From assembly GCA_963812695.1 (NCBI GenBank), contig CAWEWD010000006.1:16555-80554 (forward strand): DNA of 64,000 nt. Direction: 5' to 3'. Position numbers and translations under genes: made by a program. Shown piece after piece: positions 11,831 to 17,365 of the stretch. This DNA is from an uncultured Actinomycetes bacterium. GTDB taxonomy: Bacteria; Actinomycetota; Thermoleophilia; Gaiellales; Gaiellaceae. The notes beneath the pieces are model-generated. The model saw only the letters and a list, made by a program, of their open reading frames with translations, was not told the origin of the DNA and searched no databases. The first letter of the stretch is position 1; the number at the start of each line of letters is the position of its first letter.

Positions 11831-13561
11831 CTAGCGAACTCTTTCCTTGACCTGCGCTACCCACTTCAGCGACTGCAGGTAGGCGAGTGACTTCGGTCGC
11901 CGCAGGATCTCGGCCGTCCGCAGGCTGAGCAGGAACTCGTCCGGGCCCTCGAACGCGCGCATCCGCAGGCCGCCCGTTGCGAGCCCCTGCAGGACGTGCG
12001 CGTCGGAGCCGGCGCCCATCGTCAGGTTGTACTTGCGGGCGAAGCGGAGCGCCTCGTCGTTATACGCCTCGAAGAGCAGGCGCGCGTTGTAGACCTCGAA
12101 CACGTCCACGTCGCCGAGGTTGCGGTGCAGCGTCGCCGGGTTCGGGATCGAGTGCATGCGGTCGAACGGGTGTGGGAGATAGACGAGCCCGCCCTGGGCC
12201 TTGATCGCAGCGATCGTGTCCCCGAACGACATGCCTCGTGGGATCTCCTCCTTGAGGAAGAGACCGATCACCTCGCCCTGGCCGTCGGTCTTGATCTCCT
12301 CGCCCGGGATCACGATCAGGTCGCGCCCCCGGGCGAGCTCCACGGCCTCGAGGGCGCCGCCGAAGACGTTGTGGTCGGTGACCGCGATCGCTCCGAGGCC
12401 GGTGTTCTCTGCGTGGTCGAGCAGATCTTCGACCTCGACGGAGCAGTCGGCGGACCACGACGTGTGCAGGTGCAGGTCGGCGAGGATCCAGTCCCGGTCC
12501 GCAAGCGGGTCGGGTGGCCTGGGCGTTCGCCGCCGCTTGCCGAGACTCTCGTACAGCTCCTCGAGCTCGGCGCCGACGTCGTCGAACGTCTTGCCCGCGA
12601 CTCCGCGCCTCGCCTCCTCCGAGAGCTGCTTGCGGAGCGGCTCGTTCTCGGCGAAGCGGGCAAGCGCGGCCGCTACGAGCTCGGGTTGCTCCTGCACGCC
12701 GGGGGGAGAGGCGATCGCCGCTCCGGCCGCGGCCGCCTCGAGCGAGACGCGCGACAGACCGTCGAGCGCCGGCACGAAGATTGCGGTCTCGGCCAGGATC
12801 GGCGCTCTGCTCTTCCCGTCGCGGGCCGTCCGCACGCGAGCGCGTCCGCGGAGCTTCGCCGGGACCGCGGGCCGTCCGGCCAGCTTCTTCGTGCGCAGGT
12901 AGACGAGCTCCCAGTCGGGGAGCTCGCCCAGGGCGCGCTGCACCGCCCGGGCGAGCGGGCGTTCGATTGGGCGCCACTCGAGGACGACGAGCTGCCGCTT
13001 CGTTCCCGGAGTGAAGAGCCCGGTGTCGACGCCTTCCGGGACGATCCGGTAGTCGCCGGGGAAACGCTGCGCAGCGGCGTGCGCGGCCTCGGGCGACGAC
13101 GCCACGAGCGCGTCGATCCGGGCGAGCAGCTTCTCGCGCTGCGCTTTCGCGGGCGGGTACCCGAGCCGCTCCGGCGAGAAGAAGCTCGCGACGCTCAGTG
13201 CGCGCCCATCCCGGAGAGCAAGGTACGAAAGGCTCGGCAGGCCGGGCTCGAAGCCGTGGACGACGTCGAACGCTCCGTGGGAGAGCGCTGTGGCCAGGTT
13301 GGCTCGGACGCCGACCGGCAGGCCGATCCTGCTTCGCCGCGAGATCGGCACGGCCGGACCGAGCGCGATCAGCGGCGCCTCGAGCCCGTCACGCAGCGCG
13401 CGGCGTCCCGCCGCGAGATCGGCCGCGCGATTCGAGGGCGCGAGGACGCTGACCGAGTGGCCGCGCTTCCGGAGCGCGTCGGCGATCCCCGCGACGTGCT
13501 CGTTCACGTCGTGCGGCTGAGACCACGAGAAAGGGGTCACCAGGCAGATTCGCAGGGACAC
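11831..13561 (-). CDS. GT4 glycosyltransferase (PimA-like) fused to a C-terminal PHP-domain metal phosphoesterase
   Basis: 576 aa. GT-B N-lobe MSLRICLVTPFSWSQPHDVNEHV, C-lobe SLEAAAAGAAIASPPG. PHP motifs LHLHTSWSADC, VTDHNVFGG, GSDAHV. Confidence 0.85.
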   Translation of the reverse strand: MSLRICLVTPFSWSQPHDVNEHVAGIADALRKRGHSVSVLAPSNRAADLAAGRRALRDGLEAPLIALGPAVPISRRSRIGLPVGVRANLATALSHGAFDVVHGFEPGLPSLSYLALRDGRALSVASFFSPERLGYPPAKAQREKLLARIDALVASSPEAAHAAAQRFPGDYRIVPEGVDTGLFTPGTKRQLVVLEWRPIERPLARAVQRALGELPDWELVYLRTKKLAGRPAVPAKLRGRARVRTARDGKSRAPILAETAIFVPALDGLSRVSLEAAAAGAAIASPPGVQEQPELVAAALARFAENEPLRKQLSEEARRGVAGKTFDDVGAELEELYESLGKRRRTPRPPDPLADRDWILADLHLHTSWSADCSVEVEDLLDHAENTGLGAIAVTDHNVFGGALEAVELARGRDLIVIPGEEIKTDGQGEVIGLFLKEEIPRGMSFGDTIAAIKAQGGLVYLPHPFDRMHSIPNPATLHRNLGDVDVFEVYNARLLFEAYNDEALRFARKYNLTMGAGSDAHVLQGLATGGLRMRAFEGPDEFLLSLRTAEILRRPKSLAYLQSLKWVAQVKERVR

Positions 13562-13624: not shown

Positions 13625-15097
13625 CTAGGACTGAGCGGCCGCCTTGGCCTTCGCCTTCTTGCGTCCGTACTTCTTGATGAAGCTCTCGACGGCGTCCCGC
13701 GCCTCGTCGTCCGGGAGCTGCTTCGGCGGCGACTTCATCAGGTAGGCGCTGGGCCCTTCGAGCGCCCCGCCGACGCCGTTGTCGAGCGCCAGCTTCGCGA
13801 GCCGAACCGCGTCGATCACGATCCCGGCCGAGTTCGGCGAGTCCCACACCTCGAGCTTGAGCTCGACGTTGAGCGGCACGTCGCCGAAGGACGTGCCCTC
13901 CATGCGGATGTACGCCCACTTGCGGTCGGTCAGCCACGGCACGTAGTCGGACGGGCCGACGTGCACGTTGTCCGCGCCGAGGTCGTAGTCGAGCATCGAC
14001 GTGACCGCGTTCGTCTTCGAGATCTTCTTCGACTCGAGACGCTCACGCTCGAGCATGTTCAGGAAGTCGGAGTTCCCGCCGACGTTGAGCTGCATTGTCT
14101 TGTCGAGCTTCACGCCGCGCTCGCGGAAGAGCGTCGTCAGCACGCGGTGCGTGATCGTCGCGCCGACCTGCGACTTGATGTCGTCGCCGACGATCGGAAG
14201 CCCGCGCTCCTCGAACTGGCGCCCGAAGTAGCCGCCCTTGGCGATGAAGACGGGCATGCAGTTCACCATCGCGCAGCCCGCGTTCAGGATCTGCTCCGTG
14301 TACCACTTGGTCGCCTCCTCGGAGCCGACCGGGAGGTAGTTGACGACGACGTCCGTACCCGTCTCCTGGAGGATGTTCACGACGTCGTCCGTGTCGCCGG
14401 GCGCCTTGTCGACGATCTCGGACAGGTACTTGCCGAGCCCGTCGTGCGTCATGCCGCGCGAGACGGTGATGCCGGTCTTCGGGACGTCGGCGAACTTGAT
14501 CGTGTTGTTCGGCTTCGCCCAGATCGCGTCGGCGAGGTCCTTCCCGACCTTCGTCGTCGTGACGTCGAACGCGGCCGTGAACTCCACGTCGCGGACGTGG
14601 TAGCCGCCGAGGTCGACGTGCATGAGGCCGGGGACGAACTCATCCGGCGAGGCGTCCTTGTAGTACTCGACTCCCTGGAGGAGCGAGTTGGCGCAGTTGC
14701 CGACGCCGATGATCGCGACGCGGACCTTCTCGTTCCCACGCGTCTTGCCGTTCTGGCTGCCGTTCTTTGGCATTGGTTCCTTTCTGGGGATGGCTGCGTC
14801 GAGTCGCTCGGTGAGCGAGTCGACGACGACGGTGTTCGTGCTGCTGCTGCGCTCGCGAGCGGCGTCGTCGAGCCTGCGCTTGAGTGCGGGCGGGACGCGC
14901 AGGAGCACGTCGCCGCTCTCACCGGGCGCAGGGCCGCGCCGGCCGCTCGGCGTGAAGTCGACGTCGAACTCGTCGGCGAGGATCGCGACGGCGACATCGT
15001 TGAGAGTGCTGTCCCGGCGCGAGACCTCGCGGCCGAGCCGGCGCTTCAGGGTCTTCGGCATCCGGACGAGGATGCTGGTCTGCTCTCTCTTCGCCAT
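13625..15097 (-). CDS. ino1: myo-Inositol-1-phosphate synthase with an in-frame N-terminal tandem ribbon-helix-helix extension
   Basis: The Ino1 core starts at [38 protein letters not shown] (ATG 14773, preceded by AAAGGAA). 108 more codons run upstream with no stop. Confidence 0.85.
14774..15097 (-). other. Tandem RHH (CopG/Arc/MetJ-like) module encoded in frame with ino1
   Basis: Two repeats fit beta-helix-turn-helix: [36 protein letters not shown] and [36 protein letters not shown]. Confidence 0.6.
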
Positions 15098-15098
15098 T

Positions 15099-15125
15099 CT
15101 GCTAGCAGCGCACTGCTGCTAGCAG
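15099..15125. promoter_or_regulatory. Two perfect 10-bp palindromes CTGCTAGCAG, 17 bp apart, abutting the long ino1 start codon
   Basis: 15099-15108 and 15116-15125 are identical. A third copy, CTGCTAGCAC, lies at 15156-15165. Confidence 0.55.
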
Positions 15126-15129
15126 AGTA

Positions 15130-15711
15130 TCAACCTTGTCGGAGCTGCGAACGAACTGCTAGCACGCGCTGGACGACGGTGATCCACGCCGTCGCGGTCA
15201 GCAGGTAGATCGCCCAGGGCAGCACGCCCCAGGGAGCGAGCACGAGACCGGTCACGATCACGACCACGCGCTCGGCCCGGCTTCCGATCCCCACGTCGCC
15301 CTTCAGTCCGAGCGCCTCCGCGCGCGCGCGGGTGTAGCTGACGAGGAACGAGCCAACGACCGCCGCGAAGGCGAACGCGAGCGCCACGTCGTTCCCGTCA
15401 CGCGAGAAGACGAGCGCGATCGCTCCGAGCATGAACGCCTCGCCGATGCGGTCCGTCGTCGAGTCGAGGAACGCGCCGAACGTCGTCCCCTTGCCGCTCG
15501 ACCGAGCAAGCGCCCCGTCGAGGATGTCGAGCACCGAGCCGACGACGAAGAGCGCGGCCCCGACCCAGAAGCAGAGGATCTCGTTGCGGTACTCGAAGTA
15601 GACGACGACGCTTGCGATCGCGCAGATCGTGACGCCGGCGAACGTGAGCGCGTCGGGTGAGATCCGCGTGCGCGCGAGATGCCCCATCCCACGCGTGGCA
15701 GCACGGCGCAC
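15130..15711 (-). CDS. pgsA: CDP-alcohol phosphatidyltransferase (PIP synthase / PgsA1-like)
   Basis: Motif DILDGALARSSGKGTTFGAFLDSTTDRIGE (D-x2-DG-x2-AR...G-x3-D-x3-D). Start is GTG 15711 or ATG 15687. The longer ORF N-terminus is Arg/Gly-rich. Confidence 0.85.
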   Translation of the reverse strand: MRRAATRGMGHLARTRISPDALTFAGVTICAIASVVVYFEYRNEILCFWVGAALFVVGSVLDILDGALARSSGKGTTFGAFLDSTTDRIGEAFMLGAIALVFSRDGNDVALAFAFAAVVGSFLVSYTRARAEALGLKGDVGIGSRAERVVVIVTGLVLAPWGVLPWAIYLLTATAWITVVQRVLAVRSQLRQG

Positions 15712-15746
15712 ACCCGCCGTATACGCCTCTTTCAGGCCTCCGGCGG

Positions 15747-16505
15747 TCAGGCCGGTGCCGGGCGCACCCGCGCGACGAAGCGCCGCAGGTGCTTGTGGTT
15801 GACGACCGCGGCCGCGATGGTCGCGACGAGGATCCCCGCCACGATGTCGAGCCAGAAGTGGTTGCCGGTCGCCATCACGCAGAACCAGACCCAGAGCGGC
15901 CAGAGCAGCCAGAGCGCCTTCGCCCACTTCGAGCGGACGATGAAGAAGAGCCCGACGCCGATGATCAGCGAGTCAGCGGCGTGGAGGCTGGGCATCGCCG
16001 CGTACGGGTTCGCGTCGGCCCGGACGATCGCGCTGTTGTGGTTGATGCCGAAGTTGGCGAGCGTGTCGACGAAGCCGAGCTCCGGGAACATGCGCGGCGG
16101 AGCGGTCGGCATCAGGACGAAGCCGATCAGCCCGATCACGTTCGCGAGCAGGATCGTGTTGCGCAGCGGGACGAAGTGATCGTTGCGCCGCAGGTAGACC
16201 CAGAGCAGGACGAGCCCGAGGACCGTGAACTGCGAGTGCCAGTACGTCAGCGAGGTCGCTTCGCGCAGCACGTTCGAGGAGGCGACGAAGCTCTGGAGCG
16301 ACAACTCCCAGAGACCGGTGATGCGGTGCTCGAAGTCGGCCACGCGCAAGCCGTTCTGGAATGCCTGGAACGCGTCGCGGTCGGCGACCCCCCGCGTGTA
16401 GCGATATGCGAACAGGAAGCCGAACCAGATCGCCAGCTGGCGGATCAGGTCAAGGGGCCCGTGCGGGAGGATGCGGGCCCGAGCAGCCGTAGCGGCACTG
16501 GACAC
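15747..16505 (-). CDS. PAP2_3 (Aur1/IPC-synthase-like) membrane protein
   Basis: Multi-TM. AMPSLHAADS and GNHFWLDIVAG match the PAP2 C2/C3 motifs. GTG 16505. Confidence 0.75.
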   Translation of the reverse strand: MSSAATAARARILPHGPLDLIRQLAIWFGFLFAYRYTRGVADRDAFQAFQNGLRVADFEHRITGLWELSLQSFVASSNVLREATSLTYWHSQFTVLGLVLLWVYLRRNDHFVPLRNTILLANVIGLIGFVLMPTAPPRMFPELGFVDTLANFGINHNSAIVRADANPYAAMPSLHAADSLIIGVGLFFIVRSKWAKALWLLWPLWVWFCVMATGNHFWLDIVAGILVATIAAAVVNHKHLRRFVARVRPAPA

Positions 16506-16534
16506 GACGTTGCATTTTAGACTCAGGTGCGGGT

Positions 16535-17365
16535 GTGACGGAGTTTTCGCGGAATTCGACCGATCAGTGGAGCGAGGAGCTCCTACGTACGTCGGGGTAC
16601 GAACGAATCGGTTTTGCGGCTGGTTTCGACGCGAATCGGCCCGCGCCACCCGACGTTCTCGTCGAGATCCTGTGCCTGGAAGCGCACGTTGACAGACCGC
16701 GGCTCGTTGTCGATCTCGGGAGCGGAACCGGCCTTTCGACGAGGCTCTGGGCAGGTCGGTCCGACGAGGTCGTCGGTGTCGAGGCGAGCCCCGCGATGCG
16801 CGAGCAGGCCGAGGCTGCGACCTCGGCGGACAACGTGCGCTTCGTTCAGGCGTACGCGCAGGCGACCGGGCTCCCGGACGGCGGGGCCGACATCGTCACG
16901 TGCTCTCAGGCGCTCCACTGGATGGAGCCTGAGCCGACGTTCGCCGAGGCGGCGCGGATTCTCCGGCCGGGCGGCGTGTTCGCGGCGTACGACTACGACT
17001 GGCCGCCGATCGTGAGCTGGGAGGTCGAGGCCGCGTTCGAGGAGCTGCTGCGGCGCGTCCGGGCCGGCCGCGCGCCGGACGGCAGAGGGATGCGCTACGC
17101 GAAGGAGGGGCACCTCGAGCGGATCAAGGCGAGCGGGCACTTCAGGTACGCGCGCGAGATCGTGTTCCACTCCCGCGACCGCGCGGACGCTGCGCGAATC
17201 GTCGGCATGGCGCTCAGCCTCGGGCCGCTGACCGTGCTCCTCAACGACGGCAAGAGCGAGGAAGAGGTCGGGCTCACGGCTCTGCGCGAAGCCGCTGGGC
17301 GGACGTTGGGCGATCGCGAAGCCGAGATTTTCCTCGGCTACCGGATCAGGCTCGGCGTCCGCTAG
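16535..17365 (+). CDS. Class I SAM-dependent methyltransferase
   Basis: Motif I VVDLGSGTGLS; post-I and motif II DIVTCSQALHW; LRPGGVF. Confidence 0.85.
   Translation: MTEFSRNSTDQWSEELLRTSGYERIGFAAGFDANRPAPPDVLVEILCLEAHVDRPRLVVDLGSGTGLSTRLWAGRSDEVVGVEASPAMREQAEAATSADNVRFVQAYAQATGLPDGGADIVTCSQALHWMEPEPTFAEAARILRPGGVFAAYDYDWPPIVSWEVEAAFEELLRRVRAGRAPDGRGMRYAKEGHLERIKASGHFRYAREIVFHSRDRADAARIVGMALSLGPLTVLLNDGKSEEEVGLTALREAAGRTLGDREAEIFLGYRIRLGVR

Follow-up and report, generated by a model that had tools for sequence, protein, structure and literature searches.

Paired palindromic boxes before a Gaiellales gene that fuses a predicted ribbon-helix-helix domain to inositol-3-phosphate synthase: a candidate autoregulatory operator

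Why do two copies of one perfect palindrome stand directly before the start codon of an inositol-3-phosphate synthase gene? The question arose in a 64,000-nucleotide stretch of DNA (the window) from an uncultured bacterium of the Gaiellaceae (Actinomycetota; GenBank assembly GCA_963812695.1, contig CAWEWD010000006.1, positions 16,555 to 80,554). An earlier note, made from the letters of this stretch, had pointed to the palindrome CTGCTAGCAG beside the start of a long ino1 open reading frame (ORF) and had offered two readings. Either the boxes are DNA operators for an adjacent ribbon-helix-helix (RHH) module, or the two copies pair in RNA and form a hairpin that occludes the start codon. Our analysis suggests that the boxes form a dyad-symmetric autoregulatory operator for the RHH domain that is fused to the enzyme itself, a reading that we consider probable from the sequence comparisons and the structural model. 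The first of the two readings was thus favoured by the comparative evidence (co-occurrence with the module, fixed register and invariant boxes); from this evidence we infer the binding itself.

The letters and coordinates of the twin palindromes, 17 bp apart, proved exact, as did the 1-nt distance between the proximal copy and the long-form start on the minus strand (Table 1). The junction on the coding strand reads TGA TACT CTGCTAGCAG CAGTGCG CTGCTAGCAG A ATG. The inverted repeat behind the hairpin, which the earlier note drew with a 10-bp stem and the loop CAGUGCG, does exist, and its arms are in fact 12 nt long around a 5-nt centre. Chance alone would place the exact 10-mer in the window 0.06 times; it was found twice, 17 nt apart. 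Its 8-mer core, TGCTAGCA, has three copies in 64 kb, all inside 15100-15164 (the boxes span 67 nt). The tetramer CTAG is 6.5-fold under-represented in the window, with 28 copies where base composition predicts 181; of those outside the boxes, three or more overlap TAG stops of minus-strand genes (11831, 13625, 17362). When one mismatch was allowed, no match to CTGCTAGCAG other than the twin boxes and a third box upstream was found in the 64-kb window. This count alone is not significant (3 observed versus a shuffle mean of 1.06, with 7 of 100 shuffles reaching 3). We judge the boxes to be real because they are conserved at the same place in all 46 related loci; the counts are not decisive.

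These related loci were collected by a protein-pattern scan for the module with one genome per species, and they come from Gaiellales, Gaiellaceae or Thermoleophilia metagenome-assembled genomes (MAGs). Conservation in related genomes, a check that the earlier note had proposed, was borne out: all 46 loci have boxes where the RHH-ino1 gene begins. Cores of the TGCTAGCA type (at most one mismatch) were counted 128 times in the 130-nt zones that precede the module's first strand and 61 times in the other 390 kb, a density of 21 versus 0.16 per kb. Exact cores outside the 130-nt zone still lay within about 260 nt of the same anchor. The distal box was found in 44 of 47 sequences. In the 15 loci that share the window's layout, mean pairwise identity was 100% for the distal 10-mer, 94% for the proximal 10-mer and 94% for TGATACTC, compared with 61% for the 7-nt spacer and 70-83% for the flanking coding DNA.

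The boxes also hold their place when the upstream gene does not. The earlier note had named this gene pgsA, a name that fits less well, since inositol-phosphate synthase models outscore the PgsA model. Models for archaetidyl- and phosphatidylinositol-phosphate synthases gave 142.7 bits (NF040950) and 132.8 bits (NF045883), both below their cut-offs, compared with 30.6 bits for the true PgsA model. The product is more likely a CDP-alcohol transferase resembling phosphatidylinositol-phosphate (PIP) synthase. In L028, L029, L033-L035, L037 and L039 this gene is either missing or separated by 116 nt to 3.3 kb, and the boxes stay at the 5' end of RHH-ino1.

An exact scan of metagenomes for the twin pattern returned at least 120 stretches. 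Among the 120 matches listed, 63 lay at this junction, 61 with the module beside the match and 2 with the upstream gene at a contig end; the others listed were mostly unrelated low-GC contigs or tandem duplications. High-GC matches without the module (L064, L072, L084, L125, L137, L143, L154 and L161, among the matches listed) were considered as members of a regulon and rejected, being tandem duplications or arrays with no -10-like element. A search for a regulon found no other box pair in the 64-kb window. The motif is not scattered there, every exact core lying in the same short interval; members of a regulon may still lie beyond the matches listed. A dispersed intergenic repeat (REP- or MITE-like) was rejected as well, the copies being confined to that interval in the window and to the vicinity of the anchor in related loci.

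The RHH module exists as the earlier note had said, but as the N-terminal domain of the long Ino1 and not as a gene beside it. In all 46 genome loci it shares one reading frame with Ino1 and no stop codon intervenes, even though the linker contains indels and identity to the window module falls to 45%. Over genome and metagenome DNA together, module and Ino1 are in frame in 82 of the 82 cases in which the sequence reaches Ino1. Differences in the module by codon position are 0.19, 0.15 and 0.41, which shows that the module is translated and under protein-level (purifying) selection. The catalytic part matches TIGR03450 with 553 bits over residues 125-474, and its closest PDB entry is 1GR0, the Ino1 of M. 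tuberculosis (E = 3e-148). The long ino1 ORF is a true fusion, with a domain of predicted DNA-binding type and a catalytic domain in one polypeptide.

An AlphaFold2 model of the module, built from a 10-sequence alignment, had a predicted local distance difference test (pLDDT) score of 85 and a predicted template-modelling (pTM) score of 0.78. It contains a strand at residues 7-12 with helices at 15-28 and 32-43, and then a strand at 63-68 with helices at 70-82 and 87-101. The best PDB matches by Foldseek were chains E, F and G of the F-plasmid relaxosome, a permuted single-chain Arc (1u9p), AvtR (4hv0) and DndE, with template-modelling (TM) scores of 0.5-0.7. For F-plasmid TraY, AvtR and single-chain Arc, the TM scores were 0.6-0.7 with a probability of about 1 and a sequence identity of 13-19%. 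The module is therefore predicted to be a single-chain tandem RHH, in which two beta-alpha-alpha units make a pseudo-dimer. Sequence profiles responded faintly. Pfam HicB (PF05534) gave 22.2 bits with the isolated module (cut-off 21) and 15.5 bits in the full protein; RHH_10 gave 15.5 bits against a cut-off of 27 and NF041551 gave 19.5 against 30. A PDB sequence search with the module profile returned RHH antitoxin and CopG matches only, and these were marginal (E about 0.1). The toxin-antitoxin reading suggested by the HicB label was rejected, as there is no HicA-like partner and the module is fused to Ino1. When a tandem-RHH profile was run against 1.84 billion representative proteins, 473 had E ≤ 1e-3. 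Many of these are 100-140 aa long and match the profile over its full length, so the module probably has stand-alone relatives that are not fused to Ino1.

The two boxes do not vary independently. In a covariation count over 24 distinct arm pairs with 500 shuffles, 88.9% of cells were complementary compared with 78.1% in the shuffles, and none of the 500 shuffles reached the observed value. There were 31 cells altered on both sides, and sliding the partner arm abolished the signal. L038, L041 and L042 read TGATAGCA...TGCTATCA, and L043, L044 and L046 read TGCTATCA...TGATAGCA. Asymmetric variants are thus mirrored in six loci, in at least two events, and L033 alone is uncompensated. Because asymmetric variants are mirrored between the boxes, the boxes seem to act as one dyad-symmetric unit. 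Such variants would be expected for two intrinsically asymmetric tandem-RHH modules on a twofold oligomer.

The predicted DNA-reading face of the module points in the same direction. If the module is like Arc, the DNA-facing residues of each strand are those at the second and fourth positions ahead of the invariant Arg. The residue at the first of these positions (R-2) is Leu in both strands in 37 of 37 loci with canonical boxes, and Ile and Val in L043, L044 and L046; the R-4 residue of strand 1 is Asp in L038 and L041. By this analogy, it is suggestive that the predicted DNA-facing residues change with the box variants, in two clades only.

The boxes keep a fixed register with a promoter-like element. 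The pattern TANNNT with free N positions is what is expected of an actinobacterial extended -10 element. Its last base coincides with the first T of the distal core in 41 of 47 sequences; the metagenomes show this register in 42 of 44 unique sequences, and in 38 of those a TG stands one base before the hexamer (TGnTANNNT). The N positions vary (TACTCT, TAATCT, TAAACT, TAGACT, TATAGT, TATACT and others). This conservation suggests a promoter with its transcription start at the distal box. The start codon, in contrast, is found at varying positions with respect to the boxes. In the window's clade it comes after the proximal box, and in L030-L032, L036 and L043-L046 it lies in the spacer, where the proximal box encodes residues 2-5. 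L028 and L029 have one box only, between TATACT and ATG, with a spacing as in a nearly leaderless mRNA.

The third copy with one mismatch, placed by the earlier note inside the 3' end of the upstream gene, was confirmed. Since that gene ends at the TGA downstream of it, the box falls in the gene's final codons (RVLAVR). It is spelled GTG CTA GCA GTT, and in four local genes CTA serves 2 of 179 Leu, GCA 12 of 202 Ala and GTT 6 of 143 Val codons. Where the PIP-synthase gene is non-adjacent, or where a clade has no third box, common codons (ATC/CTC CTG ...) spell the homologous residues R[IL]L[HSYF]V and no box is formed. The third box has no inverted partner arm. Rare codons here, and common codons with other residues where the box is absent, indicate that it is selected as a DNA (or RNA) sequence. 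In L022-L026 the PIP-synthase coding region holds additional exact TGCTAGCA cores, roughly 40 and 80 bp farther upstream still. Counted from the first strand of the module they lie at about 131 and 170 nt, and with the boxes at -91 and -51 they make a series with a period of 39-40 bp.

How might such an operator work? With its two-stranded ribbon, the tandem RHH pseudo-dimer would enter the major groove of a single TGCTAGCA box (8-10 bp). Since inositol-phosphate synthases form homo-oligomers (tetramers), two boxes could be occupied jointly: two RHH modules related by a twofold axis could sit on both mirrored boxes at once. The distal box covers the final base of the -10-like element together with the expected transcription start, and the proximal box comes 17 bp downstream. 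Occupancy would then block RNA polymerase, and the gene would repress its own transcription (autogenous control). The third box, 40 bp upstream, would belong to the operator. DNA binding, repression rather than activation, cooperativity through the oligomer and the existence of two isoforms are all suggested by the sequence comparisons and the model.

We favour the operator because the boxes are co-inherited with the module at every locus found, because they keep to the 5' end of RHH-ino1 when the upstream gene is elsewhere, and because their register with the -10-like element is fixed while the start codon moves. It is favoured further because the box core is near-invariant over deep divergence while the spacer drifts, and because partnerless third and extra boxes are kept, the third in rare codons, and a single-box lineage exists.

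Several observations weigh against the operator. The mirrored variants are predicted by a hairpin as well. L028 and L029 carry TGATAGCA yet have canonical strand residues, which weakens the correlation between residues and boxes; these same loci have a single box. The distance from box to box ranges from 14 to 19 bp across loci. This range shifts the helical phase, so the operator model needs flexible tethers. Membership of the module in curated RHH-family profiles is marginal. A sigma-70 promoter scan of 14700-15500, whose consensus is of the E. coli type, found no promoter, and the evidence for the putative promoter is its conservation.

The strongest alternative is that the boxes work mainly in RNA, where read-through transcripts would form the 12-bp hairpin beside the long-form start. 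Such a hairpin might block long-form initiation, couple it to termination of the upstream ORF, or stabilise or process the message, and Ino1 would be made from an internal start. The fold is indeed strong (-22.8 kcal/mol for the 12-nt arms of the window, with a range of -11.5 to -22.2 kcal/mol across 13 other loci), its inverted symmetry is kept through two-sided changes, and a loop that varies with the 14-19 bp spacing would do it no harm. The long-form ATG, 1 nt from the stem, lacks a Shine-Dalgarno sequence (the DNA before it reads GCTAGCAGA), and the internal Shine-Dalgarno motif and ATG are conserved. However, no variation at all was seen in 5 of the 12 stem pairs, and the 8-nt core hardly changes even at 45% module identity, a constancy that a stem kept for structure alone would not usually show. 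Depending on the clade, the start codon is found behind the stem, within the loop or beside a single box, and L028 and L029 have no second arm at all. Partner arms are also missing for the third box and for the extra boxes of L022-L026, and a transcript from the putative promoter would start inside the 5' arm and so be without it. A scan of 14700-15500 for intrinsic terminators gave none, the hairpin being followed by AAUGGCG with no U-tract. A search of 14600-15500 against Rfam 15 gave no match with E up to 1, and the z-score of the wider region is only -1.18. The hairpin of the earlier note therefore stands as a strong stem of conserved symmetry, and its proposed occlusion of the long start fits less well than the operator, given the shifting start and the single-arm loci; we regard a function mainly in RNA as rather unlikely. 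Mixed or unforeseen roles have a small probability; a dual role is possible, in which read-through transcripts carry the hairpin and might yield the short enzyme only.

A second alternative accepts an operator and assigns it to a separate trans-acting regulator, for example of the LacI or TetR type, instead of the fused RHH domain. Palindromic boxes of 8-10 bp suit many dimeric regulators. In Corynebacterium and Mycobacterium, ino1 is controlled by IpsA, a separate LacI-type activator that senses myo-inositol (PMC3899939), and a TetR gene lies near ino1 in L169. On the other hand, the boxes are inherited along with the RHH module at each of the 46 loci, whatever the position of the gene, no further regulator gene is conserved there, and the predicted DNA-facing strand residues change together with the box variants. 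A separate regulator thus seems improbable to us. That the boxes are neutral or arose by chance (through local duplication, as a dispersed repeat or as a consequence of the adjacent coding sequence) agrees with the insignificant mismatch count and is hardly credible when boxes are in place in 46 of 46 genomes while the spacer varies, no other exact core exists in 64 kb and CTAG is strongly avoided.

The fused RHH domain may be absent from part of the enzyme. A Shine-Dalgarno-like motif precedes the internal ATG in 68 of 68 unique sequences, nearly always as [AG]GAAAGGA-N4-ATG, and the surrounding linker is variable. The motif doubles as the codons R/G-K-E/D-x-M. Because Shine-Dalgarno motif and ATG are conserved inside a variable linker, an RHH-less Ino1 is probably also translated from the same mRNA, and in the proposed mechanism this mRNA would yield both forms. 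As a tentative extension, possible and still doubtful, Ino1 may be a trigger enzyme. Long and short isoforms would enter mixed tetramers, and the number of RHH modules per tetramer, perhaps with the catalytic state (glucose-6-phosphate, NAD(H), inositol-phosphate), would set the occupancy of the boxes.

The features of the locus are collected in Table 1.

Table 1. Features of the RHH-ino1 locus, in order along the coding (minus) strand; coordinates are those of the window
Feature	Position	Strand	Remarks
PAP2-family gene	15747-16649	-	
Upstream gene (called pgsA in the earlier note), CDP-alcohol phosphatidyltransferase	15130-15927	-	Pfam PF01066; stop TGA 15130-15132
Third box CTGCTAGCAC, coding strand GTGCTAGCAG	15156-15165	-	Core 15157-15164; 9/10 match; 40 bp upstream of distal box
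Extended -10-like element TGATACTCT (TGnTANNNT)	15124-15132	-	TG from the upstream gene's TGA; last T is the first base of the distal core
Composite dyad	15098-15126	-	12-nt arms 15098-15109 and 15115-15126, 100% complementary, 5-nt centre (inverted-repeat search); putative unit of recognition
Distal box CTGCTAGCAG	15116-15125	-	Core TGCTAGCA 15117-15124; first box downstream of the -10-like element
Proximal box CTGCTAGCAG	15099-15108	-	Core 15100-15107; exact match; ends 1 nt before the long-form ATG
Long-form ATG	15095-15097	-	First start codon after an in-frame TAG
Long ino1 ORF (RHH-Ino1), 490 aa	13625-15097	-	
N-terminal module, 108 aa	14774-15097	-	Two predicted ribbon-helix-helix units and a variable linker
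Putative internal translation start	14771-14784	-	GAAAGGA 14778-14784, ACCA, ATG 14771-14773
Ino1 catalytic part (inositol-3-phosphate synthase), 382 aa	13625-14773	-	Pfam PF01658; in frame with the module
Glycosyltransferase-PHP fusion	11831-13561	-	Pfam Glyco_transf_4, PHP and PHP_C

A GT4 glycosyltransferase fused to a PHP phosphoesterase lies directly downstream of RHH-ino1 in the window and also in L168 and L169. Its place in an inositol-lipid operon suggests a PimA-like transferase linked to a candidate phosphatidylinositol-phosphate phosphatase. The form of about 490 aa occurs many times among public gene calls, under no other name than 'myo-inositol-1-phosphate synthase'. In L169 (1140-1501; NCBI VAYH01000005.1), Ino1 is annotated from the internal ATG (381 aa), and the in-frame RHH module and the twin boxes are left in an unannotated gap of 360 nt. 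A JGI contig (L167, 3300-3320) has TAA for GAA in the linker, and module (103 aa) and Ino1 form separate ORFs 3 nt apart with the boxes intact; this may be either a natural split variant or a sequencing error. MAG MFD08669.bin.1.20 contains two PIP-synthase/RHH-ino1 loci on different contigs (L002 and L020), both with boxes, which are either paralogues or a strain mixture. In L058 the frame goes past the module and the opening residues of Ino1 into 200 aa of unrelated sequence, and GC is 0.62 compared with about 0.68 in the other loci; we rejected it as a fusion to another protein, the contig being probably chimeric. P0006/L168, in which the module seemingly stands in a different frame, was left out, several genes on that contig being broken.

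Among known systems, the design recalls PutA of enterobacteria, a 'trigger enzyme' in which an N-terminal RHH domain is joined to proline dehydrogenase and P5C dehydrogenase. In both cases an RHH domain is attached to a metabolic enzyme with presumed sites in its own control region. Unlike PutA, the enzyme here is inositol-3-phosphate synthase, the box is TGCTAGCA, and a conserved internal start may give an RHH-less enzyme. The predicted RHH here is also a tandem single-chain pseudo-dimer, whereas that of PutA is one unit that dimerises. In NikR, RHH dimers stand at the ends of a tetrameric core and bind two half-sites with a spacer between them; the geometry inferred here is the same, with a dyad operator and a non-conserved spacer. 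The core here, however, is an enzyme and that of NikR a metal-binding domain, each box here is itself palindromic, and the spacing of 14-19 bp varies with lineage.

The fold with two beta-alpha-alpha units per chain (RHH2) is shared with F-plasmid TraY, viral AvtR and engineered single-chain Arc. Those are stand-alone DNA-binding proteins and not, as here, part of an enzyme fusion. The met-boxes of MetJ and the operators of Arc, Mnt and CopG consist of repeated short palindromes (8 bp) that an RHH ribbon reads, and the present boxes are like them in form. Met-boxes are contiguous (8-bp repeat), with contacts between dimers, whereas the boxes here lie 14-19 bp apart with a further box at 40 bp. 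IpsA likewise controls ino1 transcription in Actinomycetota and hence the synthesis of inositol-derived lipids. It differs in that the predicted DNA-binding domain here is part of Ino1, and the positions of the boxes suggest repression. Full-text literature searches found no paper linking RHH with inositol-phosphate synthase, and the Gaiella occulta genome paper does not mention the fusion.

Inositol-3-phosphate synthase catalyses the committed step to phosphatidylinositol lipids in Actinomycetota, and its known control in the phylum is by the separate regulator IpsA. In the Gaiellales, an abundant and mostly uncultured soil order, the enzyme itself carries a predicted DNA-binding domain and its gene carries a conserved candidate operator. 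The annotation is corrected at the same time, since some public records call the short enzyme only and leave module and boxes in a seemingly empty intergenic gap. If the binding is true, this would be a second independent case of the PutA design (RHH plus enzyme), one that has a compact operator of defined sequence and possibly works through two isoforms. If the tentative trigger-enzyme reading holds too, the enzyme that opens phosphatidylinositol synthesis would gauge its own level or load and tune its own promoter, a mode of ino1 control undescribed so far.

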